A stretch of DNA of 64,000 nucleotides from a phage. The notes below the pieces were generated by a model. That model worked only from the letters and a program-made list of their open reading frames with translations. It ran no database searches and had not been told where the DNA came from. Both the position numbers and the translations under genes were made by a program. Positions within the stretch are counted from its first letter, which is position 1. Every line of letters starts with the position of its first letter. Shown piece by piece: positions 44,927-59,953 of the stretch. Location: sequence record PZ452611.1; one strand, given 5' to 3'.

Positions 44927-44930
44927 AAGA

Positions 44931-45181: not shown

Positions 45182-45188
45182 GTATGAT

Positions 45189-45521: not shown

Positions 45522-45541
45522 GAAAGTGCAGGAGATAAAGT

Positions 45542-45977: not shown

Positions 45978-46303
45978 CAGAGATCATCATTTCAACTGCA
46001 GGGTATGTGTTCCTGACAATCATTGCACTGACTATTTTGGTGACAGTGTATGGGTTTGTTATCCTTCCTATCCTTGAGACATTTAGTTTGTGTCGGTGTT
46101 GGAGAAAAGCTTACGGTCCACAACCATGGAAGGACTGGCCCCACCTAGTGCGCTTAGCGTTCTCTTATGCTTACGATCACTCCAGCAGTGCATGCATAAC
46201 CGGATACCACGCCCACAACTGGAGCTGGGAAGGGTTGAGGAAATGGAATGTTACAAAGACCATACCTCTGCGCATGTACAAACCTAAAAACAAAGACAGC
46301 TGA
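45974..46303 (+). CDS. membrane protein
   Basis: 109-aa ORF; N-terminal two hydrophobic helices (IIISTAGYVFLTIIALTILVTVYGFVILPIL). Confidence 0.45.
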   Translation: MTEIIISTAGYVFLTIIALTILVTVYGFVILPILETFSLCRCWRKAYGPQPWKDWPHLVRLAFSYAYDHSSSACITGYHAHNWSWEGLRKWNVTKTIPLRMYKPKNKDS

Positions 46304-46599
46304 TACTTGAAAATTCCTGGCATATCAAGTATAAGGGGGATTTCTAAAATGGATTTCCTCCTTTTGATATTTCACCGGGCTGGATATTTTAAAATTCTTA
46401 GAAAATCAGAAAATGGATCGAAAACTAAAATGGATTTTTTCAGCACAGGCGCGGAAAATTGTGCCAATCTATCTAGCCGTTTGCACCATATTCGAGATCA
46501 CCGTTCCAGATTTCCCACACATACACACCTCTCCACCATACCTTTCTCCACTCACTCTTAGTGATTTATGACGGAAAACCCATCGCTATCAGTGAGTTG

Positions 46600-46800
46600 C
46601 GGTACAATTTTTCCAGTACTCGATCTACTTTTCATCTCATGGCTTGGATTTTCTGAAAATTTTTCTCGATAAATTTCTCAGTACTCGATCTGTTTTTCGT
46701 TTTCTGAATCGGATTTTCTGGAAATCGTTCCGGAGCTCGACCTGAAATTTTTGGGGACGAAATCGATTTTTCGTTTTCAGAAATGGATTTTTAAAATTTC
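46600..46800. repeat. tandem degenerate ~55-bp direct repeats (3 copies)
   Basis: units containing tt(c)cagtactcgatct...ttttc...ggattttctg(g)aaa repeated head-to-tail; no ORF >60 aa with RBS. Confidence 0.6.
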
Positions 46801-46899
46801 TATATGGGAATATTTTATGGGATACTGTTTTATAGGAAATTGTTACGGAGGGTAATTAGCATGCTAACTAAATTTATGAAATGCGAAAAGTTCTCATTT

Positions 46900-47230
46900 A
46901 GAATTTTGAATGATAATCATTCTCGTTTGCAGAATAACGGGCACCCCCGGTGATTGTCTCCCGGCCCCTACTGCCCCGGCTTGTTATTATAGTAACACAC
47001 AGGACAAAGAAAGCAAGAAGTTTTTGCATAAATTTTTAGACGATAATGATAATCGTTCTCATTTTATGCAGCGCCCATCCCCGGTGGTTGTCTCCCCCGT
47101 CACCGGTGCCTGCCGTCCTTTCGATAGGTATATTGTGCCACCTGGCGGGGCCGCTGTCAACACTTTTCAAAAAATTTTTCTAACCTGATGCGCTAACCGC
47201 TGCAACCTGGCGGGGCCAGCCTGGCAGGAC
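46900..47230. repeat. direct repeats in non-coding region
   Basis: two copies of ~70-bp unit (gataatc(g/a)ttctc(g/a)ttt...cccc(c)ggtg(a/g)ttgtctccc) ~130 bp apart, followed by three acctggcggggcc motifs. Confidence 0.5.
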
Positions 47231-47318
47231 CTAACTGACCAGGTAGGAGAGAATGAAGGCTTATAATCTGGTGGGCCTGTGCTATAGGATAGGTAACAAT
47301 TGAAGAGGAGGTACAAAA

Positions 47319-47501
47319 ATGAAAGGTAATATGATCCCCCTGGAAAATGTAGCGATTAATGACGCTGAGGCTATCGCCCTGGTTGAAAAGGCTATGGCGG
47401 GAGCGTTGGAACATAAAGAAGAGTACGAAAAATGGTGGTTAACCTGGCGGGGGCGGCGGCTGGAGAATTCTGCCCAAAAAATAATTTTAACTAATGGTTG
47501 A
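47319..47501 (+). CDS. hypothetical small protein
   Basis: 60-aa ORF, RBS gaggagg 7 nt upstream; first gene of the early-type cassette region. Confidence 0.45.
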   Translation: MKGNMIPLENVAINDAEAIALVEKAMAGALEHKEEYEKWWLTWRGRRLENSAQKIILTNG

Positions 47502-47527
47502 CAGCTCGGACAGTTCTTGTTATTCTT
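47499..47527 (+). promoter_or_regulatory. sigma70-like promoter
   Basis: TTGACA - 17 nt - TATTCT upstream of the 47581 start. Confidence 0.45.
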
Positions 47528-47580
47528 ATCCTCGCAAGGTGAACAACACCACACTAATTAACAGAGAGGATAAAAAAATC

Positions 47581-47778
47581 ATGAACGCCTACGGAATCAA
47601 AGTACGTCGCAGCACTCGCCAGGTGGTCACCGATCAAATGGTTTGCCAGGTGGACGTAACCATCAACAACGGGCAAGGCCTTTATAAATTTCGTCGCGGT
47701 CATAGCTATACCCTGCAACAGCTTAATCGTTGCGCCCTGACAAAAGGTCAGATCAACCACTGGTTTAATAAAAAATAA
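47581..47778 (+). CDS. hypothetical small basic protein
   Basis: ORF 47494-47778; internal ATG (M30) preceded by agagagg and A-rich spacer, downstream of promoter. Confidence 0.45.
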   Translation: MNAYGIKVRRSTRQVVTDQMVCQVDVTINNGQGLYKFRRGHSYTLQQLNRCALTKGQINHWFNKK

Positions 47779-47782
47779 GTAT

Positions 47783-47811
47783 TGACATATAGTCCGACAC
47801 CAAATACACTA
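47783..47811 (+). promoter_or_regulatory. sigma70-like promoter
   Basis: TTGACA - 17 nt - TACACT. Confidence 0.5.
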
Positions 47812-47842
47812 AAAGCACAAAAGACACTAAGAGGATAAAATC

Positions 47843-48241
47843 ATGAAAACCACTACCTTTAATTTTGATAATGCAGACTTTTCTTTTTCTGATGTCAAGA
47901 ACTGCCGCCGTGATCGTGGATTTTACAAGGCTTATAATCTGGTGGGCCTGGACGATGACAATAATTTGCACGAAGTAGCTGAGATCCGGTATTATGCCGC
48001 CGCCAGTGGGAACACTTACTACTGCGTTTTTTGGATACACGACAACAAGAACAATAAGTACGGCTATACTGGCGGCAAGGCAAGCGGTCACGGTTATGAT
48101 AAAGCTAACGCAGCACTTGAGAGCGCATTAAATGCCATGGGGATCACTGCCGACGGCTGGATCTACGAAGAAGAGTTTTTGTCGGCACTTGCTGACCACC
48201 TAGGCTATAAAAAGCACATTGTAACATGCGCCCACGAATAA
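47843..48241 (+). CDS. hypothetical protein
   Basis: 132-aa ORF, conserved UTR context aagaggataaaatcATG. Confidence 0.5.
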   Translation: MKTTTFNFDNADFSFSDVKNCRRDRGFYKAYNLVGLDDDNNLHEVAEIRYYAAASGNTYYCVFWIHDNKNNKYGYTGGKASGHGYDKANAALESALNAMGITADGWIYEEEFLSALADHLGYKKHIVTCAHE

Positions 48242-48247
48242 AAATCA

Positions 48248-48275
48248 TTGACACGCTGCAAAATTTAAGTAAACT
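48248..48275 (+). promoter_or_regulatory. sigma70-like promoter
   Basis: TTGACA - 16 nt - TAAACT, followed by 5'-UTR hairpin GGCGGG-aatgttt-CCCGCC. Confidence 0.5.
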
Positions 48276-48323
48276 AGACACAAAAGGCGGGAATGTTTCC
48301 CGCCAGCACAAAGGAAAAAGATC

Positions 48324-48728
48324 ATGAATAAGAACGTACGCCGCATCATGAACGAGTTGGCAAACGATGAAAAAATTATTGACATGCATTTGATCAACAT
48401 TTGCCGCCGTTGTGTAACATATAACAACCGCGCCGCAAAAGCGCGTGAGATGAACGCAAAAGGCACCTTAAAGCCATTCCAGGTGGTGGTAAAGGCCATT
48501 AAAGATGTAACTAATACGGCAAACCAGGTACAGGGGAACACCAACGAGAGTACCAATATTGATCCGGCTTACATCATGAAACGGATCCGGACCTGCAAGA
48601 ACAAAGAGCAAGTGTATAATGTCATAGACTGGTTGGATTCTATGGGCGATGTGGTTTACAATAGGTTTTCTGCAGCTATCGAGATCCAGCTTGACAGGTT
48701 GGACGGTAAAGTACTAAAAACTTACTAA
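48324..48728 (+). CDS. hypothetical protein
   Basis: 134-aa ORF. Confidence 0.5.
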   Translation: MNKNVRRIMNELANDEKIIDMHLINICRRCVTYNNRAAKAREMNAKGTLKPFQVVVKAIKDVTNTANQVQGNTNESTNIDPAYIMKRIRTCKNKEQVYNVIDWLDSMGDVVYNRFSAAIEIQLDRLDGKVLKTY

Positions 48729-48808
48729 GTTTATTTTTAGATGGCCTTGACTCCAGGGCCATCGATAAAGTAAACTAATCCCAGTTAAGCGAAAAAGGAG
48801 GCTTGAAG

Positions 48809-48928
48809 ATGAGCACTACACGCCAACACACAAAGGTAACGATTATCGTTTGCATCATTGGTTACATCCTGGCGCAAATGTTGATGGGTAGCGCCAATGA
48901 TTTCGCAAAATTTTTCTTAGACTTTTAA
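48809..48928 (+). CDS. small hydrophobic peptide (39 aa)
   Basis: not in >=60-aa ORF track; ATG preceded by aaaaaggagg; sequence MSTTRQHTKVTIIVCIIGYILAQMLMGSANDFAKFFLDF has one predicted TM helix; coordinates +/-1. Confidence 0.3.
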   Translation: MSTTRQHTKVTIIVCIIGYILAQMLMGSANDFAKFFLDF

Positions 48929-48956
48929 TTGACAAGCTAACTTAAATCAGTATAAT
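48929..48956 (+). promoter_or_regulatory. sigma70 consensus promoter
   Basis: TTGACA - 16 nt - TATAAT. Confidence 0.55.
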
Positions 48957-49008
48957 ACTAAGCACATAAACGGGAAAACTTCCCAGAACACCAAAAGGAG
49001 AAAACATT

Positions 49009-49359
49009 ATGAATACTTCCATCACTATGACCGCCGAAGAAAAAGCCCTGCAGATCGCCGCTCTGAAAAAACAGATTGCAGAACTTGAAGACAAGATCGA
49101 CAATTTTGAAATCGACGAAGACAAATACGACGATAAATATGATGAATGGTTGGACGAGATCTACGGCGAAATTATGATCGGAAACATTTCTTTTCTTCCG
49201 TCGCGTATCCTCAAGGAGCTAGATCCTATCGCTTACCGCTGCGGATTTAGCGACTACATCGACAGCCTGGATATTGAGGACGATGAAGAATACCAGGAAT
49301 TACAGACAGAGCTTGAAGAAGTGAAAGAAGAGCTTGCAGAACTGGAAGAAAACGAGTAA
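49009..49359 (+). CDS. highly acidic coiled-coil protein
   Basis: 116-aa ORF; very high Asp/Glu content (EDDEEYQELQTELEEVKEELAELEENE). Confidence 0.5.
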   Translation: MNTSITMTAEEKALQIAALKKQIAELEDKIDNFEIDEDKYDDKYDEWLDEIYGEIMIGNISFLPSRILKELDPIAYRCGFSDYIDSLDIEDDEEYQELQTELEEVKEELAELEENE

Positions 49360-49448
49360 ATTTATTTTTAGATGGCCTTGACTTCAGGGCCATCAATAAA
49401 GTAAACTTTAGACTGTTAACACTTAACCAATACAGAGGAGTTAAAACC

Positions 49449-49694
49449 ATGGCCGCACTAATTACCAAATATTATGCCCCTACCAACACCAAAAGCGCCC
49501 GTATCATGGTAAAAGGCTTCGGACGTAAAAAGGTGTACACCTGGGATTATTCCCTAGACATGGAAGACAACTACACCAACGCGATGACAGATTTTATTAA
49601 TGAGCTGAACACGCGGATCTTGACAAATTATAAAATTACCGATATTGCCTATATAGGGGAAGGCGGGATCTGTTTTGTCGGTATCGTCAAATAA
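49449..49694 (+). CDS. hypothetical protein
   Basis: 81-aa ORF, RBS agaggag. Confidence 0.5.
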   Translation: MAALITKYYAPTNTKSARIMVKGFGRKKVYTWDYSLDMEDNYTNAMTDFINELNTRILTNYKITDIAYIGEGGICFVGIVK

Positions 49695-49770
49695 ACTGTT
49701 TTTTCGGTGGTCCTGGTAGCAGGGCCATCTATAAAGATAGTTTATCAGCACAATGAAAGGAGAAAGTAAC

Positions 49771-50124
49771 ATGATCAGCGGGGCAAGTTTTATTATTGGC
49801 GCTATTGCTACGGCTTTAATTGTAAACAAGATCCAATCCAAAAACGAAAAAGAGAGCAACGCGCTTACAGAATACCCATTTTGGGTATTCAACGACAATG
49901 AAGACTACATTATCAAGTACAAGGATGAGAAAGGGGACCAGGTAACACCGAGACCGATCCCAGCTTACAAGATGCAAGAAACATTATACCGCTTAAAGGC
50001 TGGCGGCGCAAAAATCGTAGACTTTTGGGGATATGATTGCAAGGATCAGGAGACTATAAAACGTCGTATCCGGGCGATTCAGGCAAATATTGAGATCAGT
50101 AAAGGGGGCGTTTATGAAAATTAA
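49771..50124 (+). CDS. membrane-anchored protein
   Basis: ORF 49753-50124; ATG at 49771 preceded by aaaggagaaagtaac; N-terminal TM helix ISGASFIIGAIATALIV. Confidence 0.5.
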   Translation: MISGASFIIGAIATALIVNKIQSKNEKESNALTEYPFWVFNDNEDYIIKYKDEKGDQVTPRPIPAYKMQETLYRLKAGGAKIVDFWGYDCKDQETIKRRIRAIQANIEISKGGVYEN

Positions 50125-50311
50125 TTTCGAAAAAATTGTAAAGCGCCCCCACGATTCCGAAGAGCTGCCGGAACGCCGCCAGCGTAACAATAAACTGAAT
50201 AAACCGAAAAGGTTCGGGAAGATCTGGAGAAATCACTATGATCGCAAATTACCGGGCCTGCTTTTGGAACGTGAACGACAGGCGGAACGATACCGCCACA
50301 AAGACAAATAG
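50114..50311 (+). CDS. small basic protein
   Basis: ORF 50090-50311; ATG at 50114 preceded by aaaggggg; Arg/Lys-rich. Confidence 0.4.
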   Translation: MKINFEKIVKRPHDSEELPERRQRNNKLNKPKRFGKIWRNHYDRKLPGLLLERERQAERYRHKDK

Positions 50312-50319
50312 CAACCAAC

Positions 50320-50350
50320 GCCCCGCCATTGTGCGGGGCTTTTTATTTCT
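50320..50350 (+). terminator. putative intrinsic terminator
   Basis: GCCCCGC-cattgt-GCGGGGC hairpin followed by TTTTTATTTCT. Confidence 0.6.
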
Positions 50351-50492
50351 ATCCCGCCGATAGCGCCCCTGGTTGGCCCTACAAGCGCCATAAAGGCCCC
50401 TACCTATGCAATCCCCTTTCTTAACCTGAAAACAGCGTCTAGGGCCGTTTTATGGCGTTAAAAATATTATTGACAGTAATTCTATTTAAAGC

Positions 50493-50521
50493 TTGACACC
50501 TTGGGATAGTCCGGATATACT
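50493..50521 (+). promoter_or_regulatory. sigma70-like promoter
   Basis: TTGACA - 17 nt - TATACT; a second TTGACA lies 23 nt upstream. Confidence 0.5.
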
Positions 50522-50556
50522 AACCACATCAAAGCAAGAAGGAAGGAGTAAACGCC

Positions 50557-50817
50557 ATGCGTAAATTAAAAAATTTTGATAAAGTAGATGTTGTCCTGAA
50601 TAATTTTTACTACTGCAATAATAAAGCCGTTTGGTGGCGTGATAGTTCCACCGATAAAGTTAAAGCGCGCTTTCTCCAAGGGCACTGGCAAGGCCGCCCA
50701 GTGATTAAAATCTCGGGGCAATTGGTAGCGTTTAAAAATTGCCGCCGTGTTGATGACGTTGAAGAGATTCTAAACATTTTACGCCACAATAATTTAAAAA
50801 ATAGTGTTGACAAGTAA
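50557..50817 (+). CDS. hypothetical protein
   Basis: 86-aa ORF, RBS aaggaagga. Confidence 0.5.
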   Translation: MRKLKNFDKVDVVLNNFYYCNNKAVWWRDSSTDKVKARFLQGHWQGRPVIKISGQLVAFKNCRRVDDVEEILNILRHNNLKNSVDK

Positions 50818-50834
50818 GTCTCAATAAGTATACT
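50807..50834 (+). promoter_or_regulatory. sigma70-like promoter
   Basis: TTGACA - 16 nt - TATACT followed by hairpin GGCGGG-aaaactt-CCCGCC at ~50845-50863. Confidence 0.5.
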
Positions 50835-50891
50835 TAAACACACAGGCGGGAAAACTTCCCGCCACTAACAAAGAAAATAGGAGAAAATATC

Positions 50892-51515
50892 ATGACCACC
50901 GTTAACATTACCACAGGTTACAATTTAGCTTTCGACGTGCTGACCGACGAACAAAAAGAAAAAGCCGTTGAAATGGTCCGAGAAAGAGAAGAACACAGCG
51001 GGGATAACTTTTTTGCAGAAAGTGTAATTGAAGACTATAAAGAATATGTCTTTCCAGAGTATGGCCTTGAAGATACCAAGGTACATTGGTCCGGCTTTTG
51101 GTGCCAGGGTGACGGCGCGTCAATCAGTGCGGAAAACGTGGATTTAGAAAAATTCTTGCGTAAAGTAAAGGCCCTGACCAAGTTCCGATCAATTCGTCAC
51201 TTGTTCGGCACAATGCACGATGGCGAGCTATCCGCAAGTGTTGAGCGTGATCCATATAGCCGCTATAGTCACGAAAACACTGTAAGCGGGTACATCGATA
51301 CTACATGGCTAGACCTGACCGCCAAACAAGAAAATAAAGTGGAAGATCTGGAAGAGCTGATCACCGAGACGGTACGGGAGCTATCCCGCAAGGTTTACGT
51401 AGACCTGGAGGAGGCCTATCTAGAACAGTTCACTACCGAAAACCTGATCGGCCTTATTGAGGCCAATGATTGGCGGTTTGATGTGGATGAATATGGAGAG
51501 ATGAGTTTTTCATAA
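50892..51515 (+). CDS. hypothetical acidic protein
   Basis: 207-aa ORF; acidic; conserved-looking WSGFWCQGDGAS segment; no family recognised. Confidence 0.5.
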   Translation: MTTVNITTGYNLAFDVLTDEQKEKAVEMVREREEHSGDNFFAESVIEDYKEYVFPEYGLEDTKVHWSGFWCQGDGASISAENVDLEKFLRKVKALTKFRSIRHLFGTMHDGELSASVERDPYSRYSHENTVSGYIDTTWLDLTAKQENKVEDLEELITETVRELSRKVYVDLEEAYLEQFTTENLIGLIEANDWRFDVDEYGEMSFS

Positions 51516-51523
51516 ATAAAGTG

Positions 51524-51551
51524 TTGCAATAATCTAAAAACCTGCTATATT
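51524..51551 (+). promoter_or_regulatory. sigma70-like promoter
   Basis: TTGCAA - 16 nt - TATATT followed by hairpin GGGGCAA-gacgtt-TGCCCC. Confidence 0.45.
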
Positions 51552-51604
51552 AAAACTCAAGGGGCAAGACGTTTGCCCCCACACAAAACAAAGAGGAAAA
51601 CATC

Positions 51605-51985
51605 ATGAAAAACACTACCAAAGCTATTTACACCGTTATGTTTAACCTGGTTACCTTTCGCGAGGATATGAAAGATCTTCCGCGTGAAACAGTGTGCGAC
51701 CATATCGAAAACTATCGCAAACTAATCAAAGAGTTGCCTTTAAAACGTGATCAGTATGCGGCTAACGCCATGCTTAATGCCATGATCAAAAAGATGATCC
51801 AGTGTGATTTAATTCTAGCCTATGATTATGCGGGTGGTCGTTTTGCAGTATACAATCAGCCCGTGCCCGGTATGGGCACCATCGAAGAATTGCACGCGCT
51901 CAATCTAAAACAAGATGTGTGGGATAGTATGCCCCGCGTGGTGGTGTGGGCAGAAAGCGGGAAGATTTACGGCGATAGTTTTTAA
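51605..51985 (+). CDS. hypothetical protein
   Basis: 126-aa ORF with conserved UTR context aaagaggaaaacatcATG. Confidence 0.5.
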   Translation: MKNTTKAIYTVMFNLVTFREDMKDLPRETVCDHIENYRKLIKELPLKRDQYAANAMLNAMIKKMIQCDLILAYDYAGGRFAVYNQPVPGMGTIEELHALNLKQDVWDSMPRVVVWAESGKIYGDSF

Positions 51986-52049
51986 TCAGGTAACAGGCGG
52001 CATATTTGCCGCCTTATTGTTAAACAAAACTGCAAAAGAGGTACATAGA

Positions 52050-52421
52050 ATGGAATTTATTATTTTGGCTGTATTGGTTGCCTTGTTTAACGCCTGGATC
52101 GCTGGCAAGATGGGCAGATCCGCCTTTTTATGGTTTATTATATCTATTTTCCTGGGGGTGGTTGCAACTATTGTATTGGTTATCCTTGCAATTGTTGACA
52201 AGGGGAATAATAGAAAGGGTAAAGTATTTTCAGACCTGTACGACGCTCAAACGTTTGTCAACGCCTATTATAGTGATCTTCCAGTCTCCCTACGCTGCAG
52301 CTTGGCACAACAGGTTTTTGATGAGGCTAAAACCAGAGATCAAGCCCATGAGATATGTTTAACTGAGGCGGATCGCCTATTTGAGAGGAATAGAAAATAT
52401 GTGGGCCAACCGTTTAAATAA
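52050..52421 (+). CDS. membrane protein (two TM helices)
   Basis: ORF 51915-52421; ATG at 52050 preceded by aaaagagg; MEFIILAVLVALFNAWIAG and FLWFIISIFLGVVATIVLVILAIV hydrophobic helices. Confidence 0.5.
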   Translation: MEFIILAVLVALFNAWIAGKMGRSAFLWFIISIFLGVVATIVLVILAIVDKGNNRKGKVFSDLYDAQTFVNAYYSDLPVSLRCSLAQQVFDEAKTRDQAHEICLTEADRLFERNRKYVGQPFK

Positions 52422-52644
52422 TGCCACGTTAATTAATCCCTTTAGTGAAGATTTGAAGCCAGCCGCCTGGCGTGACGGATTCAATAACGAACGCTTTATT
52501 TTCAGGCCTGATCTTGAGGAATTTTATAACAATGGATCGAACAACAGCGGAGATAATTTTTCTTGTGGTGTGTGTCGTGATAGGACTCCTGGGGGCCATT
52601 GTAGATCGCGTCACTACTACCAGAAGGAAAGGGGGAGACGATGA
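52399..52644 (+). CDS. hypothetical protein (frame ambiguous)
   Basis: ORF 52381-52644; ATG at 52399 with gagagg RBS; overlaps alternative-frame 41-aa TM peptide 52532-52657; low-complexity composition. Confidence 0.3.
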   Translation: MWANRLNNATLINPFSEDLKPAAWRDGFNNERFIFRPDLEEFYNNGSNNSGDNFSCGVCRDRTPGGHCRSRHYYQKERGRR

Positions 52645-52900
52645 CAACCAAGGATAAGCCATGCACCGATAAGGTGCGCCGCGTTATGGTATGGCTTGAG
52701 ATTATCGCCCTTGAAATATTGCTAGGCGTAGGGATGTACTTTATCGCTGTAAGTAACTAAGAACGGCCCCCGATCATGGGGGCCTATCTTTTAAAAAAAA
52801 ATTTTCTTCCGGGGTGTTGCAATCCGGTCCGGAATGTGGATAATAACAATCAACGGGGAGCTAATCCCCACCACCACAAAAACCAGAAAGGAGAAACAAA

Positions 52901-53101
52901 ATGAGCAACAATATCCGCGTTATTAACTTCAAAAAAGAAGAAAAAATTGCCGTGCTGATTGACGGTCAAGAAATCTTCAAGGGCGACTATGAAGATCATC
53001 AAACGGCGATTAGTATCACTCGCGTGATTGGTTACCATAATTTCTACCCCCAAGGCGCTGAGGCAGCAGTTAAACGAATCAAAGAGATTGTAGGCCTGTA
53101 A
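52901..53101 (+). CDS. hypothetical protein
   Basis: 66-aa ORF, conserved UTR context gaaaggagaaacaaaATG. Confidence 0.5.
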   Translation: MSNNIRVINFKKEEKIAVLIDGQEIFKGDYEDHQTAISITRVIGYHNFYPQGAEAAVKRIKEIVGL

Positions 53102-53192
53102 AATTTATTTTTAGATGGCCTTGACTTCAGGGCCATCAATAAAGTAAATTTAAACCCTGTTAAAATAATCAGTGCAAAAAGGAGTAATGATC

Positions 53193-53492
53193 ATGTTTAT
53201 ACCCGCCAATAATCTTTATTTCTTTGATGGTCAGATCGTAGACGGTGTGGAAGTGGAGATCACTGGGTGCCCTGGTGGTCAGGCTATGACTTTTCGGAAT
53301 AATGCCTTTGATGATTCTCGTATCGTTATGAGAATGGAAGTTACAAAGCTGGACGACAAGAAAACGCTCATTGACTATTCCGTGAAAGATCATCCAGACT
53401 ACCACATGATCTATGGTGATTTGTGTATTGTTGACCGTGACAAGGTGGGCGGCATTGTGATCGCTATTGTGAACGATGTTTTCTCTGAATAA
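53193..53492 (+). CDS. hypothetical protein
   Basis: ORF 53172-53492; ATG at 53193 8 nt after aaaaggag. Confidence 0.5.
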   Translation: MFIPANNLYFFDGQIVDGVEVEITGCPGGQAMTFRNNAFDDSRIVMRMEVTKLDDKKTLIDYSVKDHPDYHMIYGDLCIVDRDKVGGIVIAIVNDVFSE

Positions 53493-53550
53493 TTCCGGCA
53501 AATGATGCAAAATAAGGCCCCTAGCAGGGCCTGCAGCGATATAATCACAT

Positions 53551-53584
53551 AAAGGCTATGCGGTTGCATGGCCTTTATTATTTT
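53551..53584 (+). terminator. putative intrinsic terminator
   Basis: AAAGGCTATGC-ggtt-GCATGGCCTTT hairpin followed by ATTATTTT. Confidence 0.5.
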
Positions 53585-53716
53585 AGCGTTACAGCGTCCC
53601 CAAGGCGCTTAAAAAATTTTTAAAGAAGTACTTGCATCAAGTCCTACAATATGGATAATAGGACGTGTCAGGGGGGCGGCCCCCAATCATTAACCGGATA
53701 GATAGGAGTTAAAATC

Positions 53717-54001
53717 ATGGCTATTGTCACCGTTGGCGATGTAGTGGAAATGGAAGCAAAATACTTAAAAGCGGGTATGCATATCCTACGGAATGATCAA
53801 GAATTGTTATTAACGATGGTAGACTATAATCCCGGCCAGGATTATCCAAGCATCGACATACTTTTTGAGTATGTTGATGAAGAATTGAAAGAGGATGAGG
53901 CTTATCAGGGTGAATTCTGCAATTTCTTTTGCCCTGATGAGGTTGTAAAAGTTATCTATCAACCTGGCGTACCTTTCCCGCTGCACGCTATCAATAAATA
54001 A
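53717..54001 (+). CDS. hypothetical protein
   Basis: 94-aa ORF, RBS ataggag. Confidence 0.5.
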   Translation: MAIVTVGDVVEMEAKYLKAGMHILRNDQELLLTMVDYNPGQDYPSIDILFEYVDEELKEDEAYQGEFCNFFCPDEVVKVIYQPGVPFPLHAINK

Positions 54002-54055
54002 ACCTGGCGGGGCCGAAAAGGCCCCAATTATGAAAATAAAGAGAGGTAAATCATC

Positions 54056-54289
54056 ATGATGGAACAAATTAAACGCGCTGAGGCTATTAATGGCAATGTG
54101 ATCTATTTTGTCAGCAAAAACGAAAAAGGCGTACCATATGCGGCGGTAATAGTACAACCTGACGGCGATTATTGGTTTACTGTATACGGATCTTATTCTT
54201 TCGGGCGTCCGGTTCATGATAGAATTTTGAAAGTAGCGAATCCGACCGGGAAAAATATCACAGCAGAAAAATTTTTTGAAAATAGTTGA
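54056..54289 (+). CDS. hypothetical protein
   Basis: 77-aa ORF, RBS agagagg. Confidence 0.5.
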   Translation: MMEQIKRAEAINGNVIYFVSKNEKGVPYAAVIVQPDGDYWFTVYGSYSFGRPVHDRILKVANPTGKNITAEKFFENS

Positions 54290-54313
54290 CATGACCATAT
54301 AAGACTGTAATAT
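54286..54313 (+). promoter_or_regulatory. sigma70-like promoter
   Basis: TTGACA - 16 nt - TAATAT followed by hairpin GGGGGGC-aacaa-GCCCC. Confidence 0.45.
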
Positions 54314-54365
54314 ATAAATCAAAGGGGGGCAACAAGCCCCACCAACCACAAAGAGGATAAAAATC

Positions 54366-54545
54366 ATGGCTATTATTGCAAAGACTGAGATCGTAGGCTT
54401 AGATTCTATTCTCCTCGCATATGAGGAAGCTATAGAAATGTATGTGGTTTCCTATGGTGAATATATCCGTGAATATAAATCTATTGATCTGGCTTTTGAA
54501 TGTTATATTCGCCAGGTTAATAAAGCGTACGATGATTATCGTTAA
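54366..54545 (+). CDS. hypothetical small protein (59 aa)
   Basis: not in ORF track (just under 60 aa); conserved UTR context aaagaggataaaaatcATG; coordinates +/-1. Confidence 0.4.
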   Translation: MAIIAKTEIVGLDSILLAYEEAIEMYVVSYGEYIREYKSIDLAFECYIRQVNKAYDDYR

Positions 54546-54635
54546 AATAGCTTGACAACAAACAACCATCTAACAAAGCATAATACATAAGGCGGTGGAA
54601 TGGTCCGCCACCTGGAACAAGAAGAGGAAAACAAG

Positions 54636-54740
54636 ATGAAACAGAAATTAATTGATGCGGTGATCCTGGTTATTGCCCTGGGTATTGGCCTGATTGCAAC
54701 CATGTCTAATATGATCTTGTCTTCCAACGGTATCGGGTGA
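54636..54740 (+). CDS. small hydrophobic peptide (34 aa)
   Basis: ATG preceded by agaagaggaaaacaag; MKQKLIDAVILVIALGIGLIATMSNMILSSNGIG; coordinates approximate. Confidence 0.3.
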   Translation: MKQKLIDAVILVIALGIGLIATMSNMILSSNGIG

Positions 54741-54749
54741 GGTTGGCAA

Positions 54750-54965
54750 ATGATCACTAACAAAACAGGCAAAACAGAATTTTTACGCAACTTACAGATC
54801 GGCAAGCCTGAGATCTGGTATTGCACTAAAACACCACGTGACGAAATGAAAGACTTCACCGCCACGCTGCAACGGGTAAAGATATCCATCACGCAGAAAA
54901 AGGCCTTATTAGTGGTGGAAGGTGAGATCCCCCAAACCGTTGTTATAGTTGAGCGTACAGCATAG
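54750..54965 (+). CDS. hypothetical protein
   Basis: 71-aa ORF. Confidence 0.45.
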   Translation: MITNKTGKTEFLRNLQIGKPEIWYCTKTPRDEMKDFTATLQRVKISITQKKALLVVEGEIPQTVVIVERTA

Positions 54966-55056
54966 TTTAATTTATACCGATACCCGAAAATTAACCAACA
55001 AAGCATAAACAGGCGGTTACCGCCGCCTTAAACGTAGCAGAAAGAGGATAGACACA

Positions 55057-55341
55057 ATGAAAAAGATGATCGCAGTGGTTGCCCTGGTTGTTGGACTTAA
55101 TGCGCCTGTAATGGCTAAAGAGCTGGCAAAAGAGGTTAATCTAACGGATATTCATGCCGTCAATCAAATCGGGGTTACTTATCGCTTATGCCTTGCCGCT
55201 AAAACTTTTAATGACGGTACAACAGAGTACTACGGATTCGAGGGTATCCGGTGCGGTGAGCTTGCTCGCGACCTTAAGGAAGATTCAGACCTGGAGGATC
55301 TGCCCATAACCGTGAACGGGAAAACTTACGTGAACCGTTAA
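55057..55341 (+). CDS. secreted/periplasmic small protein (signal peptide)
   Basis: 94-aa ORF; N-terminal MKKMIAVVALVVGLNAPVMA signal-peptide-like segment; RBS aagagga. Confidence 0.5.
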   Translation: MKKMIAVVALVVGLNAPVMAKELAKEVNLTDIHAVNQIGVTYRLCLAAKTFNDGTTEYYGFEGIRCGELARDLKEDSDLEDLPITVNGKTYVNR

Positions 55342-55343
55342 CC

Positions 55344-55478
55344 ATGAAAAAGATAATCATCACCTTGGGGATTGTGGTGGCAATATTGGCGCTCTTCCCC
55401 CTTATGGTTAGGTATGTGCTGATCAGTGTTATTCTAGTGGTCAGCGATCTGGTGTTATATATTAACTCATTGTTTTAG
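55344..55478 (+). CDS. small hydrophobic peptide (44 aa)
   Basis: ATG directly after stop of upstream gene; MKKIIITLGIVVAILALFPLMVRYVLISVILVVSDLVLYINSLF; coordinates approximate. Confidence 0.3.
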   Translation: MKKIIITLGIVVAILALFPLMVRYVLISVILVVSDLVLYINSLF

Positions 55479-55486
55479 GTGCGATA

Positions 55487-55678
55487 ATGACCACTGATGA
55501 AGCTGTAAAAGTGTTGGCGGTATTGAGATATCATAATCAAACAAAGGTTATAAACGATCCTGATTATGTTGACTCAAAGCGTGAAGATGAGACATTGACC
55601 GCAATATGGATTATTCAAGAATTGCTAAAGCGCATGACAGAGAAAAACCGACCGGACTACATAGGCGAAAAAATATAA
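55487..55678 (+). CDS. hypothetical protein
   Basis: 63-aa ORF. Confidence 0.45.
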   Translation: MTTDEAVKVLAVLRYHNQTKVINDPDYVDSKREDETLTAIWIIQELLKRMTEKNRPDYIGEKI

Positions 55679-55694
55679 TATTTATAAACTACAA

Positions 55695-55726
55695 AACAGG
55701 GCTTGCAATGGTCCTGTTTTTTGTTA
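55695..55726 (+). terminator. putative intrinsic terminator
   Basis: AACAGG...CCTGTT hairpin followed by TTTTTTGTT. Confidence 0.45.
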
Positions 55727-55805
55727 TACTTATTCCACGGCAGGCACCTGGCGACGGGGGGAGACAATCACCGGGGGGTGCCTGTCATATAAGAACTATA
55801 AAAAC

Positions 55806-55834
55806 CGTTGACATCTGCCAGGGGGTGGGGTAAC
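55806..55834 (+). promoter_or_regulatory. sigma70-like promoter
   Basis: TTGACA - 17 nt - TAACAT followed by hairpin GGGCA-aaag-TGCCC. Confidence 0.45.
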
Positions 55835-55890
55835 ATTTATCTTGAAGGGGCAAAAGTGCCCACACAACAACCAGAAGAGAGGAAAACATT

Positions 55891-56163
55891 ATGTCAAGCT
55901 GGATTAATCAAGAAGTCGAATCACGTTTTAATGCTATTTGGGATCTCATCGAAAAAGAGGACGGAACATCAAGCCCTTACCTCAATAATCTTGAATTCCA
56001 TTTTGTGGAAGCGATGAACGCAGAACATGATCACGAAGGTGGTGCGGACGAGTTCGCTAAAAGGTATGGCTTCAACAATGCCAACGAAATGATCGAGGCG
56101 GTTGTACTCCAGGCTGAGGAAGATTATCAATTAAAAACGCTTGAATTCTGCCGCCGCAAGTAA
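55891..56163 (+). CDS. hypothetical acidic protein
   Basis: 90-aa ORF, conserved UTR context. Confidence 0.5.
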   Translation: MSSWINQEVESRFNAIWDLIEKEDGTSSPYLNNLEFHFVEAMNAEHDHEGGADEFAKRYGFNNANEMIEAVVLQAEEDYQLKTLEFCRRK

Positions 56164-56223
56164 TAAGATAATGACACGGGCCAAAAGGCCCACTAATCAG
56201 AACCACACAAAGAGAGAAAGAAA

Positions 56224-56442
56224 ATGACAACCCGTAAAATTAAAGTTGTTTGCATTGAATCTACTGGGGGCGCTTTTGTAGTTGGTCAGGAATATAATGC
56301 GGTTTTAATGGGTACGGATTGGAAGGTTAAAGGCCTTAATGGTTACGAGTACGGCACTACTTGCGGCTTGCGTGGTCGAATCGGATACGTGAGTTTAGAC
56401 AATAAAGAAAAATTTGTTTTCGACACCCTTGTGAGTAAATAG
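56224..56442 (+). CDS. hypothetical protein
   Basis: 72-aa ORF preceded by hairpin GGGCC-aaaa-GGCCC and agagagaaagaaaATG. Confidence 0.5.
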   Translation: MTTRKIKVVCIESTGGAFVVGQEYNAVLMGTDWKVKGLNGYEYGTTCGLRGRIGYVSLDNKEKFVFDTLVSK

Positions 56443-56519
56443 CATGAATTGCTAAAGACTGATCTGCGAACTGCTGTATTATCAACTAATCAAAACGAAC
56501 CACATAAAGAGGAAACATC

Positions 56520-56783
56520 ATGAAACGTCTGGATCAGCTTAAATTAGTTCAGTACATGGCCTACAGAATTCTTGAAGTCCAAAAAGGTAGCAAAAAAGAG
56601 GTTTGCGAGAAAGCTTATAAGATCTTTACCCGCAAAAAAGATGACTGGATGCTACGCCAGACCAAAAAGGCTGACATCTTGGGGTACCTGGAAGAAGAGA
56701 TCCGACTTGAAGAGCAAGAAGAGATCCGCCGCAGTGAGGCAGATTATCAGGCAGCTTGGGAAAACTGGATGAGTAACAAATAA
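56520..56783 (+). CDS. hypothetical protein
   Basis: 87-aa ORF, conserved UTR context aaagaggaaacatcATG. Confidence 0.5.
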   Translation: MKRLDQLKLVQYMAYRILEVQKGSKKEVCEKAYKIFTRKKDDWMLRQTKKADILGYLEEEIRLEEQEEIRRSEADYQAAWENWMSNK

Positions 56784-56852
56784 TACAACAAGTTGCACGA
56801 TCAGGGGGGCAATAAAGCCCCTTGATCACATAAAAATTATGCTATCCTTGGT

Positions 56853-56881
56853 TGACAAGGATCGGCAGTTTTGCTATATTC
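56853..56881 (+). promoter_or_regulatory. sigma70-like promoter
   Basis: TTGACA - 17 nt - TATATT upstream of ORF 56930. Confidence 0.5.
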
Positions 56882-56929
56882 TTTTTTGAAGGGAAGTTGT
56901 AAGAAAATTAACTAAGAGGTAAAAACACC

Positions 56930-57349
56930 ATGAACATTAAATCTAATAATCCGGCATATAGCTTTGATAACGCTTTTTGTCACGGTCCGGCGGCGAAAGG
57001 ATTCGAAATCGATGGTAAACTAATTATTGTCAATGTTGACGGGGAAGAGGTTGCAGTATATCCGGTGGCAGACGTTAAAAGCCGTTTGCAATGCCGCATG
57101 GATGTTACCGCCTACCAGCTTGATCCGGTCCGCATAGTTGCCCTGGTCCTGGAGGAAGAGATCAAAGCCATGCATCATAGCAATAAGTTTATCGGTGACG
57201 CGCAAGATAATATGAAGGTATGCCGCTATAAAGTTAATGAAGTGCTTAAAGAATACGGCTTCAAAGATCTGATGATCAAGCGTGATGAAAAATTCCGTTA
57301 TCGTAACGACCTGGCAAATCGAATCTATGAAATATACGAATCATTATAA
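56930..57349 (+). CDS. hypothetical protein
   Basis: 139-aa ORF, RBS aagagg. Confidence 0.5.
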   Translation: MNIKSNNPAYSFDNAFCHGPAAKGFEIDGKLIIVNVDGEEVAVYPVADVKSRLQCRMDVTAYQLDPVRIVALVLEEEIKAMHHSNKFIGDAQDNMKVCRYKVNEVLKEYGFKDLMIKRDEKFRYRNDLANRIYEIYESL

Positions 57350-57367
57350 TTTCTTAACTAAACTATC

Positions 57368-57396
57368 AGGGGCTTTAAAAGGCCCCTTTCTTTTGT
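57368..57396 (+). terminator. putative intrinsic terminator ending the early-type cluster
   Basis: AGGGGC-tttaaaa-GGCCCCT hairpin followed by TTCTTTTG. Confidence 0.6.
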
Positions 57397-58329
57397 CTGT
57401 ATTTCTCCTACCACAAACGGCCCAGCCTGGCAAGTGGAATAATTGACTAGCCAGCAATTACCAACACTGTACAAATATACATATAAAATAACTATTGCAT
57501 AATCTTTCATCTTGTGGTAGCAGGGCCATTTTTACACGTTTTCCTTCCAAAATTGCACGTAATGCAGCTATTGCATAAAATTTAACCTGATGCACATCTT
57601 CAATAGCTTGTCAACAACTAAAAATCTTTATAAGTCATACACTTACATAACCACAAAAGCGTGTTCTACGTGAAAAATCGAGTATAACTATAGCCGCCAG
57701 ATCTCAGAATTTACGTACGCTCACCATTCTATAGTCTGCTAAGTATTTATTCCAACCATAGAATAACAGAATAGTCAATACCTGCATAAAATAATTATTC
57801 GTGTAAACTGCATAACATAAATCAGCCGGGGTGTCAACATTTTTCGTAAACGGCTCGAAATTATCACTGTGAGCTATCATAAACAGAGAAATCTTTAGTC
57901 GTCTAATGTTTACTGTACGTTACTATACTAACTGGAATCATTAGATGACTAATAAAAAGATAAGAAATCATTAACAATGCAATTGTTTTATTCATAACAA
58001 TAAGGCAACTATGCAAACGAATGGCATGGCGCGACGGAGTCGCGACATAATATAAAAGCAGTAACCATCACCCCCGTGATAGTTTGTCTGCAAACTATTA
58101 ATCAGATCATAGTTGCCTTGTATTTAGTTAATCATGACATAAACTCAGGCATAGCCTTCGTCTCGAGGATGTTAACAAGCAAGGCAACTATAGATCTTCT
58201 AATAGTTGCCCTGCTTTTATATTATGTCATAGAAACACCCGAAGGGGTGACCAAAGGTCACCTGGCATAGCCAGTGAAATATTGTAAACAAGTTAATTAT
58301 TATCATGCAAACGAATGGCATGGCTTATC

Positions 58330-58500
58330 ATCTCTGTGTAAATAGTTTGTTTGTAAACAGTTTATACGTGAACAGTTAGCTGTGTAAACTATCAGGCATG
58401 TAAGCTATTGAGCATGTAAACAGTAAAGGTCGTGAACAGTAAGCGAGCGAATAGTAATGGCGTGAACAATGACAGCGTAAACAGTCAGGCATGTCAATTA
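58330..58500. repeat. iteron-like array (about 11 direct repeats, period ~15-16 bp)
   Basis: GT(A/G)AAC(A/T)(G/A)T cores (gtgtaaatagt, ttgtaaacagt, cgtgaacagt, gtgtaaactat, atgtaagctat, atgtaaacagt, cgtgaacagt, gcgaatagt, cgtgaacaat, gcgtaaacagt, atgtcaatta) at regular ~15-16 bp spacing in a non-coding stretch. Confidence 0.65.
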
Positions 58501-59953
58501 TGTTCAGTGTGTCACCATTATGTCATATTGTGTCAGACAAGTTTTTCTCCTCTTTGTCAAGTGCTGCATGAAAAATTTACAATCTGGTATGGTAGCATTT
58601 TTGCGGCCCTGTTTACATTCAGTACTGTATGTATAAGCCTTGTTGTGTGGGCGCTTAGACGTCTAGACGGTTGGAAGTCTGCAGGTCAATATCTAATCTA
58701 TTGGTTGCTAACTATATCCCACACAAATAGTAAGAAATGCAATTGTTATATGCGTAAACTGTAACTCATGTTATCAATCCCTGTATGGATCGCCAGTGGT
58801 GCGCATAATAGGTATTATGTTAAATTGCCAGTAATGATAACTATTCTCACAGTGATAGGTATTCTCATTCAACCCCACAAGATAGGTTGCAAATGTTGTG
58901 CCACTGTGTGAACGGCCTCGCCTATTAATTTGCCTCACTGCCTCGATATTTGAGAATTATTATAAGAATGAGAAGTATTCCCATTTCGTCCGCCTGGCAG
59001 CACTCCTGTAGGTCAGGTCAAAATCGGGAGAGAACTGGACCTGTTCAGATATTTCTGGCTGGCTCTTCAGGTCTGTGTGGGAAAAGCCGACCCCTCCGGC
59101 GGCGGGGAGGGGGTCAATTAAAAAATTTACGGGGCATATGAAGCGCTCTTCAGGTAAGGCATGTATTATGGGATGAAACCCTCTTCAGGAAATGATATTT
59201 GTGGGTGTGATATTTGCTGGAAAGCTAGATATGACTGGACTCCTGGCGGGGCAGGGGTAGTACAGACAGGGGAAATATGGGGGATGTAGTTGGGTAAATT
59301 GATCAGGCAGGTAGAGTATGGAATATGTTACGAGTATGTTAAATATGGAGGGTGAATATCTGCAGGATTTGTGTGTAAAATCAAAGACTTAAGTGGTGTT
59401 GTGGTATTTTCTATAAATAATTCAAGTTTAATAGGTGATATTTGTCCCTATCCACTTTGTGTGGTAAACAGATTCAGATGAGATTGGTTTACGAGTGTAT
59501 ACATAATATACAAATTAAAGATACAAGAAACCCCCCTCCCCCTTCGGCTACCATTCACCTTTTCCTCTGACTGGTACTTAAACACTTATTCAGACTCTTC
59601 AGGTTATCACCCATATATCATATGGCAGTGACTGGTGTCCTCCGGCCCCTCTTTCGTCACCCGTCCGCTTCGCCATGCTAATGCCATAGCCAATGGTTCG
59701 GTTGTTCACCCTGTTCACTCAGGTGTATCTCCATACCCCTTCAAACCGAAGAGAACAGAAAACCCGAATTACTCGGTAAAAGAAAAGAGAAGAACTTAAT
59801 TTTATCAGGATAAGCAAGAATGTCAAGGCATGACTGCTCACTAAACAAGCAAACAGTCATGTGTGGGAGGTAAGTGATTGTGGTGGTAGGAAATTTAGTT
59901 GAAAGATGTGTTATAGGTGCTCCCAGCACTTTAGCCGGGTAGCTAATTGTGTG

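Follow-up and report, generated by a model that had tools for sequence, protein, structure and literature searches.

The present analysis concerns an array of small genes at positions 47319-57349 of a 64,000-nt phage sequence (record PZ452611.1), the whole of which is hereafter called the window. A previous reading of the letters alone, hereafter the sequence-only reading, had reported about 25 open reading frames (ORFs) here; our count is 29 genes, all on the + strand, with products of 34-207 amino acids (aa). The window is that of Escherichia phage rV5: the array, of about 10 kb, is 99.9% identical to positions 116651-106567 of DQ832317.1 (reverse strand) and spans rV5 ORF164 to ORF197, all of which carry the label hypothetical in GenBank; the record already marks six sigma70 promoters and two terminators among them. 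On the 5' side of the array the + strand carries closely packed genes for rIIB, a helicase, an adenine methylase, a primase/helicase, a DNA polymerase and endonuclease VII; unlike these densely packed replication genes, 23 of the 29 array genes have a spacer of their own, of 57-245 nt. A tRNA search found no tRNA genes in the window. The rV5 paper, in its passages on promoters, terminators and stem-loops, places the array genes at the end of a transcription unit running through genes 10-1-238-164, counts 33 promoters and 20 terminators in the whole genome and depicts stem-loops in no other way than as terminator symbols on its map (PMC3606486).

All 29 proteins match PHROG families, which indicates that the genes are real and conserved, and every one of these families is of unknown function. 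The earlier statement that no product belonged to a recognizable family thus holds in large part, the exception being gene 9, whose product matches Pfam Phage_1_1 (PF08200, T7 gene 1.1 protein) with 44.2 bits against a curated cut-off of 21 (E = 2.6e-11). This is the sole array protein with a named family, and its gene shares 11 nt with the end of gene 8; the Pfam search of all 29 proteins gave no match for any other, and no NCBIfam match was found for the ten larger proteins tested. The protein encoded at 55057-55341 does begin with a stretch (MKKMIAVVALVVGLNAPVMA/KE) that by eye resembles a Sec signal peptide. The array genes probably have dispensable early accessory functions. Several GenBank starts are better shifted to the ATG that follows a strong ribosome site (e.g. 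47581 and 54636). Gene 17 (53193-53492) is one intact ORF of 99 aa in the window and in relatives, and its division in DQ832317 into ORF177 and ORF178 is probably a sequencing or annotation frameshift. The GenBank record could therefore be corrected at several start codons and one split gene.

The genes can be classified by what stands before them (table 1). In about ten, hereafter class I (genes 4, 6, 11, 12, 16, 18, 20, 21, 26 and 27), a promoter, typically TTGACA-16-TAnnnT, is followed by a hairpin 8-12 nt past the -10 box (15 nt for the weak hairpin of gene 6), a leader of 19-32 nt and the ATG. In five others, class II (genes 5, 7, 17, 29 and, in degenerate form, 8), the hairpin sits over the -35 box and is consequently absent from the transcript of its own promoter. 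Three genes have a promoter without a hairpin (2, 3 and 10), three a hairpin without a usable promoter (13, 19 and 23) and two neither (1 and 28), while six without a spacer are translationally coupled (9, 14, 15, 22, 24 and 25). In the eight rV5 cassettes with strong promoters (genes 4, 6, 11, 12, 16, 20, 21 and 26) the hairpin starts 8-15 nt past the -10 box, and the A/C-rich leader, counted over eight such cassettes, contains about 6% U. The predicted 5' untranslated regions (UTRs) of eight class I cassettes fold into 2-5 free nt (9 for gene 6), one hairpin and an open stretch comprising the leader, the Shine-Dalgarno (SD) sequence and the start codon. Runs of A/T lie 5' of the -35 boxes at 48248, 50807, 51524, 52817 and 54286.

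For genes 5, 7, 8 and 17 the class II hairpin forms part of a 51-nt repeat, AAATTTATTTTTAGATGGCC-TTGACTTCAG-GGCCATCAATAAAGTAAACT, which begins at the preceding stop codon, namely the TAA of genes 4, 6, 7 and 16; the hairpin over the -35 box of gene 29 is separate from this repeat. Class I stems are perfect palindromes devoid of G-U pairs, and class II and terminator stems contain G-U pairs that can pair on the + strand only. Read on the - strand as candidate antisense terminators, several class I hairpins precede short T-rich runs (e.g. TTTTGTGTCT), which simply mirror the A-rich initial transcribed sequence. The absence of a U-tract, which the sequence-only reading had ascribed to the hairpins in general, applies to class I; five hairpins, at 50320, 52765, 53549, 55693 and 57368, carry a T-run in the manner of intrinsic terminators and divide the array into five blocks.

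These elements stand out clearly from random expectation. On the + strand of 47200-57400 there are 10 sigma70 sites matching at least 10 of 12 consensus positions, compared with 1.9 +/- 1.4 (maximum 6) in 300 dinucleotide shuffles, and the - strand of the same interval has none; a site of at least 8/12 precedes 18 of the 23 spaced genes. Simple hairpins with a folding free energy of -9 kcal/mol or lower are present in 18 of the 22 spacers between genes, where shuffles give 1.7 +/- 1.0, and in none of 38 coding windows of 80 nt. The region from -22 to -1 holds 13.4 bits of information in the 23 spaced genes, with 53% A and 10% T, versus 3.6 bits, 36% A and 23% T in 35 other genes of the same + strand unit. 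The consensus of this translation initiation region (TIR) is AAAGGAGaAAAcAtc-ATG, and the context proposed earlier, AAAGAGGAAAACATC-ATG, is present at 51590-51607, just as the three hairpins quoted with it, GGCGGGAAAACTTCCCGCC, GGGCCAAAAGGCCC and GGGGCAAGACGTTTGCCCC, all lie where they had been placed (table 1). A blind repeat search recovers the same modules independently. Strong promoters also occur outside the array, throughout the + strand unit (about 18.8 to 57 kb); the combination of promoter and downstream hairpin is concentrated in the array, with a sole further case in the window at 28927. That element (28927-28990) lies in the replication-gene part of the unit and consists of TTGACT-17-TAAGAT followed, after 11 nt, by GGGGAGGCACTCCTCCCC. 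Rfam covariance models run over 44000-61000 gave a single match, whose 31.5 bits fall far short of the gathering score (94.4; E = 0.82), and no Rfam family covers these elements.

The claim that each gene has its own promoter, 5'-UTR hairpin and stereotyped TIR is thus partly borne out: the elements are strongly enriched, but the claim is too general, the strict order being found in only about ten of the 29 genes. Independent promotion is upheld as far as sequence can indicate it, the consensus sigma70 sites being enriched, strand-specific and intergenic, six of them already in GenBank. A strand test based on the folding energy of the hairpins on the two strands was discarded, since the hairpins had been chosen on the + strand and the comparison is biased. 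A covariance model of the class I element was likewise dropped: in the MAFFT alignment of 16 elements the stems, of unequal length, were out of register, and pair counts taken from them would mislead. Support for class I comes instead from the shuffles, the diversity of paralogous stems and the substitution rates of stems and loops.

The same cassettes are found in phage phi92, which belongs to another subfamily. A promoter, hairpin and leader precede 8 of the 11 small phi92 genes examined; the -35 box is TTGACA in seven and TTGCAA in one, the promoter spacer is 16 nt in seven, the hairpin lies 6-11 nt past the -10 box and the leader measures 17-25 nt. Taking eight rV5 and eight phi92 cassettes together, the promoter spacer is 16 nt in 13 of 16 and the distance from hairpin end to ATG is 17-31 nt. 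At least eight different stem sequences occur, all perfectly paired (GGCGGGAA.., GGGCGGCA.., GGGGCAA.., GGGCC.. and GGGGAG.. among them), so that the stem sequence varies while position and pairing stay. When rV5 is compared with inoa, FFH2 and typing phage 14, changed positions amount to 2.6% in stems, 10.9% in loops and 4.5% in flanks (p = 2e-9 for stems vs loops). By these sequence comparisons, what is conserved in the hairpins is structure rather than sequence. Among databank records, the 51-nt class II unit appears in 121 Vequintavirus records with about three copies each, and an 82-nt unit of the phi92-type class I in 491 places of 142 records, with strong matches in phi92-like and ESCO13-like phages and weaker ones in other rV5-like phages. 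The expectation that hairpin and leader context would be kept in relatives is therefore confirmed, and extends to phi92. In the terminator hairpin at 53549-53578 the tip is inverted between rV5 and FFH2 (GCGGTTGC vs GCAACCGC), a flip of the palindrome centre that keeps the stem.

Gene content of the region varies among six relatives. Mapping of junctions covered the whole region in typing phage 14, FFH2 and inoa; for Mangalyan and VEcB the comparison took in chosen stretches, and for ev168 and JES2013 the annotation tables only. Four indels were placed to the nucleotide; in three of this small sample, one junction or both fall within a leader/TIR repeat or a promoter hairpin. The comparison of relatives for cassette gain and loss, proposed as a check in the sequence-only reading, thus shows such turnover. 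Gene 27 of rV5 lies between direct leader repeats (56193-56219 and 56485-56511), and FFH2 has a single chimeric leader and no gene 27; the gene is also missing from inoa, where the junctions were likewise mapped, and is not annotated in ev168 or JES2013. FFH2 and other phages have a 246-nt gene that rV5 lacks, with the junction within the TIR at 54620-54651, and a 312-nt gene of inoa and ev168 has as its right junction the promoter-terminator hairpin at 55693. In Mangalyan there are additional cassettes, all equipped with a promoter and a hairpin of their own. A block of Mangalyan is nearly identical to the phi92-like phage VEcB and returns to rV5-like sequence within gene 22; one of the Mangalyan genes occurs in three Vequintavirus records compared with about fifty of phi92-like phages.

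Two further candidates proved not to be exchange events. An apparent replacement in typing phage 14 at 50709-50858 is a run of Ns in the assembly, and that of gene 28 in Mangalyan is merely a longer annotated start. The N run of typing phage 14 (locus 4873-5148) lies where the promoter-hairpin element of gene 11 belongs, and this repeated element may have broken the assembly before gene 11. Outside the array, rV5 ORF205 (44986-45185; positions 1497-1696 of the compared locus) has 84.5% DNA identity to a gene of the T4-type Krischvirus MIZ5. The identity spans exactly the ORF, with unrelated flanks, which points to a recent transfer of a single gene between phage families; rV5 ORF205 has its own 12/12 promoter at 44931.

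Judged from their sequence, the array elements are real, non-random, conserved, fixed in position and tied to gene exchange. Their layout matches that of the elements described as PeSLs (promoter-early stem-loops) in RB49/phi1, PST/T4 and nt-1/KVP40 (Arbiol et al. 2010, PMC2839356; Comeau et al. 2014, PMC4122927), which are defined by an AT-rich region that includes the stop codon of the gene before, a sigma70 promoter, a poly-G/poly-C stem-loop in one of five positions, and an SD with a start codon (PMC2839356). In hyperplastic regions PeSLs stand densely in front of orphan genes, and they lie at indel junctions (PMC2839356; PMC4122927). The sequence-only reading missed both that the module is this described element and that the repeats mark recombination junctions. 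We consider it likely that the array is the variable accessory end of a long early/replication unit, built of cassettes of PeSL type and working as follows. A full cassette would comprise an AT-rich stretch with the preceding stop codon, a host-type sigma70 promoter, a short G-run/C-run hairpin, an unstructured, U-poor and A/C-rich leader, a strong SD and a small gene. Host RNA polymerase would fire each promoter soon after infection. The class I transcript would begin 2-5 nt 5' of its hairpin, which would cap the 5' end and slow 5'-end-dependent decay, and the open U-poor leader would allow efficient translation, as suggested by the geometry together with established work on 5' stem-loops in E. 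coli. For transcription reading in from upstream, class I hairpins and those over -35 boxes may serve as attenuators or as 3' protection, and the five terminators would separate the array into blocks. Because the modules are repeated, they also provide short homologies for the gain, loss and swapping of genes, both within the genus and with phi92-like phages, as the comparison of genomes shows. An early, host-takeover role for the array is plausible, since the host sigma70 consensus, the homologue of T7 gene 1.1 and the view published for Certrevirus in the parts of that paper dealing with promoters (PMC7344957) all point toward it.

Several observations weigh against this proposal. The activity of the promoters, their transcription starts and their timing are predictions from sequence. 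A role of class I hairpins as 5' stabilizers of mRNA may be inferred from their fixed position near the predicted start and from work on 5' stem-loops, but with the hairpin inside the gene's own predicted transcript in only about ten of the 29 genes, it cannot explain class II and hairpin-only sites; the earlier suggestion that the 5' hairpins stabilize mRNA fits the geometry of class I and fails for the hairpins outside their own transcript. The perfect class I palindromes, lacking G-U pairs, cannot tell an RNA form from a DNA form, and the authors who described PeSLs measured terminator activity, not stabilization, for one stem-loop (PMC2839356). At the low divergence available, orthologous stems show no compensatory double substitutions, six one-sided changes and 21 apparently broken pairs, several of the latter being mis-paired paralogues or replaced segments. 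The likeness of the TIRs could stem from selection for translation and not from shared descent. As to exchange, a 351-nt gene of relatives was lost from rV5 by an ordinary internal deletion away from any repeat, which left a remnant at 53493-53510, and one mosaic junction of Mangalyan falls inside a conserved gene.

A serious rival, which we nevertheless regard as rather unlikely, is the view of the PeSL authors that the hairpins are purely attenuators or terminators, which insulate the cassettes without acting at the 5' end of the cassette's own mRNA. One PeSL stem-loop indeed reduced downstream lacZ about as much as rrnB T1 (PMC2839356). The class II and hairpin-only sites of the array follow stop codons and lie outside any transcript of their own, and the G-U pairs in the class II and terminator stems can form on the + strand alone, as this view would have it. 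Intrinsic termination, however, normally requires a U-tract, and the class I hairpins have none, being followed by A/C-rich sequence; the array moreover already contains separate, canonical terminators with a T-run. In addition, 16 cassettes of two subfamilies have the start of the hairpin at a restricted distance from the -10 box (6-15 nt, mostly 9-11), a constraint that is not required of a mere insulator between genes.

It is improbable that the array primarily serves anti-defence or host takeover, with the two acidic proteins acting as DNA mimics of Ocr/ArdA type, as the sequence-only reading had proposed. Anti-defence genes of phages are usually found among small, variable, early accessory genes, and the array has genes of this appearance, with a content that differs between close relatives, a homologue of T7 gp1.1 and two products that are indeed acidic (pI 4.1 at 49009-49359 and pI 4.5 at 50892-51515). 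The idea of an anti-defence island nevertheless receives no direct support from the searches, which gave no Pfam match in the 29 proteins besides the gp1.1 homologue and no NCBIfam match in the ten larger ones. The 207-aa product of gene 11 has a confident structure model (pLDDT 86.8) in which SGF..QGDG and H127 are invariant and E128 nearly so, conserved residues that are suggestive of a pocket; no meaningful neighbour was found in the PDB, and its viral structural neighbours are all uncharacterized. For the gene 6 product (116 aa), a helical hairpin around a conserved core of 45 residues (SRILKELDPIAYRCGF), the PDB gave no match below E = 1. As a fold like that of Ocr or ArdA was found for neither protein, the DNA-mimic idea, which would call for a new fold, is left without support, and the only family match in the array remains that to T7 gp1.1.

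Least probable is that the palindromes act as DNA, either as operators at which a dimeric phage regulator shuts off the early promoters or as cruciform/hairpin recombination sites: the perfect class I palindromes do lie at about +3 to +22, where repressors typically bind, their core GGCGGGAA...TTCCCGCC recurs in rV5 and phi92, the inverted terminator tip is a DNA-level event and the crossovers mapped for PeSLs fell within the stem-loop or next to it (PMC2839356), but at least eight unrelated stems at the same position argue against one sequence-specific binding protein, the loops, which would be the operator centre, change four times faster than the stems, and the leader/TIR, not the palindrome, holds two of the junctions that were mapped.

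Returning to the cassettes of PeSL type, we tentatively suggest that promoter, 5' hairpin and U-poor leader form a portable module shared across rV5-like phages, phi92-like phages and the T4-type Krischvirus, with the leader/TIR repeats, and not the stem-loop alone, as the preferred crossover points, so that single ORFs could be exchanged without an integrase in a manner resembling integron cassettes. If so, each exchanged ORF would arrive with early expression and mRNA protection built in. Should such cassettes operate in rV5-like and phi92-like phages, promoter-bearing exchange modules would be general in large virulent coliphages rather than peculiar to relatives of T4, and would provide a simple sequence rule for finding variable early genes, a likely home of host-takeover and anti-defence functions. 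This would be of practical use with phages employed in typing and biocontrol of E. coli O157, and the modules, with a strong promoter, a 5' hairpin and an open leader, could supply compact natural parts for expression.

The regions adjoining the array also show repeats. Just 5' of it, about 1 kb (46300-47300) is without a convincing gene, and GenBank ORF198 and ORF199 in this interval look doubtful. It contains three imperfect direct repeats of 65-74 nt (46606-46791). Four copies of the motif ACCTGGCGGGGCC are found (47139, 47204, 47441 and 54001), and a perfect 24-nt direct repeat, AAGGCTTATAATCTGGTGGGCCTG, is found at 47256-47279, 5' of gene 1, and at 47927-47950, within the coding sequence of gene 3. 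On the other side, a non-coding gap of 2.6 kb (57400-60000) separates two convergent transcription units; it has GT[AG]AAC-type repeats with a spacing of 16 nt (58368-58424, also 58477 and 58754), a perfect 20-nt repeat (58011 and 58305) and a perfect 18-nt inverted repeat (58044/58211), and looks like a set of iterons or a replication origin.

Table 1. Cassettes, genes and terminator-like elements of the array (positions in the window).
Cassette	Extent	Feature	Position	Strand	Remarks
1	47216..47501	hairpins	47216-47247, 47257-47278	+	second contains TATAAT; no canonical -35 box
1		gene 1	47319-47501	+	60 aa, PHROG 21957
2, promoter only	47498..47778	TTGACA-17-TATTCT	47498-47526	+	GenBank P195B
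2		gene 2	47581-47778	+	65 aa, pI 10.4
3, promoter only	47782..48241	TTGACA-17-TACACT	47782-47810	+	GenBank P195A
3		gene 3	47843-48241	+	132 aa
4, class I	48248..48728	TTGACA-16-TAAACT	48248-48275	+	
4		hairpin GGCGGGAATGTTTCCCGCC	48286-48304	+	-13.1 kcal/mol
4		gene 4	48324-48728	+	134 aa
5, class II	48727..48928	51-nt repeat from upstream stop codon	48727-48777	+	-10 TAAACT
5		hairpin GATGGCC-TTGACTCCAG-GGCCATC	48740-48763	+	-35 box in loop
5		gene 5	48809-48928	+	39 aa, hydrophobic
6, class I	48929..49359	TTGACA-16-TATAAT	48929-48956	+	12/12, GenBank P192
6		weak hairpin CGGGAAAACTTCCCG	48971-48985	+	
6		gene 6	49009-49359	+	116 aa, pI 4.1, coiled coil around conserved core
7, class II	49358..49694	51-nt repeat	49358-49408	+	hairpin 49371-49394
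7		gene 7	49449-49694	+	81 aa
8, class II	49693..50311	degenerate 51-nt repeat	49693-49743	+	hairpin 49706-49729, two G-U pairs
8		gene 8	49771-50124	+	117 aa, overlapped by gene 9
8		gene 9	50114-50311	+	65 aa, Pfam Phage_1_1 (T7 gp1.1 family)
		terminator-like GCCCCGC-CATTGT-GCGGGGC, then TTTTTATTT	50320..50348	+	
9, promoter only	50493..50817	TTGACA-17-TATACT	50493-50521	+	GenBank P186
9		gene 10	50557-50817	+	86 aa
10, class I	50807..51515	TTGACA-16-TATACT	50807-50834	+	
10		hairpin GGCGGGAAAACTTCCCGCC	50845-50863	+	
10		gene 11	50892-51515	+	207 aa, pI 4.5
11, class I	51524..51985	TTGCAA-16-TATATT	51524-51551	+	
11		hairpin GGGGCAAGACGTTTGCCCC	51561-51579	+	
11		gene 12	51605-51985	+	126 aa, homologue of phi92 gp227
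12, hairpin only	51995..52760	hairpin AGGCGGCATATTTGCCGCCT	51995-52014	+	
12		gene 13	52050-52421	+	membrane; genes 13, 14 and 15 coupled
12		gene 14	52399-52644	+	
12		gene 15	52641-52760	+	
		terminator-like GGCCCCC-GATCAT-GGGGGCC, then T/A run	52765..52800	+	
13, class I	52817..53101	TTGCAA-16-GATAAT	52817-52844	+	
13		hairpin GGGGAGCTAATCCCC	52855-52869	+	
13		gene 16	52901-53101	+	66 aa
14, class II	53101..53492	51-nt repeat	53101-53151	+	hairpin 53114-53137
14		gene 17	53193-53492	+	99 aa
	53515..53585	two hairpins	53515-53532; 53549-53578	+	second followed by T run, terminator-like
15, class I	53631..54001	CTTGCA-17-GATAAT	53631-53659	+	weak -35
15		hairpin GGGGGGCGGCCCCC	~53671-53685	+	
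15		gene 18	53717-54001	+	94 aa, pI 4.2
16, hairpin only	54009..54289	hairpin GGGGCCGAAAAGGCCCC	54009-54025	+	
16		gene 19	54059-54289	+	76 aa
17, class I	54286..54545	TTGACA-16-TAATAT	54286-54313	+	
17		hairpin GGGGGGCAACAAGCCCC	54324-54343	+	
17		gene 20	54366-54545	+	59 aa
18, atypical class I	54552..54965	hairpin	54590-54613	+	TTGACA at 54552, poor -10
18		gene 21	54636-54740	+	34 aa, hydrophobic
18		gene 22	54750-54965	+	
19, hairpin only	55011..55678	hairpin AGGCGGTTACCGCCGCCT	55011-55028	+	decayed copy of cassette 18 promoter region 5' of it
19		gene 23	55057-55341	+	signal-peptide-like
19		gene 24	55344-55478	+	
19		gene 25	55487-55678	+	
		terminator-promoter composite AAAACAGGGC-TTGCAA-TGGTCCTGTTTT, T run, TATACT	55693..55730	+	-35 box in loop
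20, class I	55808..56163	TTGACA-17-TAACAT	55808-55836	+	GenBank P168
20		hairpin GGGCAAAAGTGCCC	55848-55861	+	
20		gene 26	55891-56163	+	90 aa
21, variable	56141..56442	TTGAAT-17-TAAGAT	56141-56169	+	weak
21		hairpin GGGCCAAAAGGCCC	56178-56191	+	
21		gene 27	56224-56442	+	72 aa
22	56485..56783	gene 28	56520-56783	+	87 aa; leader/TIR repeat only, no promoter or hairpin
23, class II-like	56799..57349	hairpin	56799-56827	+	further hairpin
23		TTGACA-17-TATATT	56852-56880	+	GenBank P164
23		hairpin	56840-56867	+	over -35 box
23		gene 29	56930-57349	+	139 aa
		terminator-like hairpin AGGGGCTTTAAAAGGCCCCT, then T run	57368..57395	.	end of + strand unit

Among known systems, the early region of T7 (gene 0.3 to 1.3) is comparable in having small early genes read by host polymerase and intergenic RNA structures that shape mRNA stability, and it shares one gene of the gp1.1 family with the array. 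The T7 region has three tandem promoters and long RNase III sites within one transcript; the array differs from it by its many internal promoters and by hairpins of 5-10 bp, too short for RNase III. The start hairpins of the ompA and papA 5' UTRs and of T7 gene 10 mRNA offer a second parallel. Such 5'-terminal stem-loops stabilize E. coli and phage mRNAs, and the array likewise has a short stable hairpin near the predicted 5' end and an open ribosome-binding region; unlike in these cases, its transcription starts are predicted and the same hairpins also occur without a preceding promoter.

Nearer in lineage, the early region of Certrevirus CB7, CR3, CR8 and CR9 is taken to be marked by conserved sigma70-like promoters that stand between short hypothetical ORFs, according to the promoter passages of their description (PMC7344957). 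These promoters and the ones published for rV5 share with the array the subfamily, the host type, the clustering in a region of small ORFs and the reading as early; the passages of the two papers on promoters, terminators and stem-loops contain no mention of the hairpin, the stereotyped leader or a link with recombination (PMC7344957; PMC3606486). Within the searchable literature, phage papers report PeSLs for T4-like phages only, and not for rV5-like phages.

The closest likeness is with the PeSLs themselves. The array shows the sigma70 consensus, the AT-rich stretch with a stop codon, the G-run/C-run stem-loop and the SD with a start codon, all within about 100 nt; its elements are dense before genes without known homologues in a variable (hyperplastic) region and bound gains and losses, with junctions inside the elements; and the published subclasses include stem-loops over the -35 box and 3' of the -10 box, both of which are present here. 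The PeSLs of Krischvirus MIZ5 follow the same design, including a CA-rich leader, although their stem-loop lies over the -10 box. In the dominant form of the array the whole hairpin is 3' of the predicted start, whereas the stem-loop in RB49/phi1 most often sits between the two boxes or covers the -10 box, and two crossovers of the array fall in the leader/TIR, those of PeSLs in or beside the stem-loop. The described PeSLs belong to T4-type myoviruses (Straboviridae), whereas rV5 is a Vequintavirus and the array form is distributed in Vequintavirinae and Stephanstirmvirinae; this lineage is treated here as a trait of the described examples and not of the mechanism. The array is thus best assigned to a type of regulatory cassette already known, here in a phage lineage new to it.

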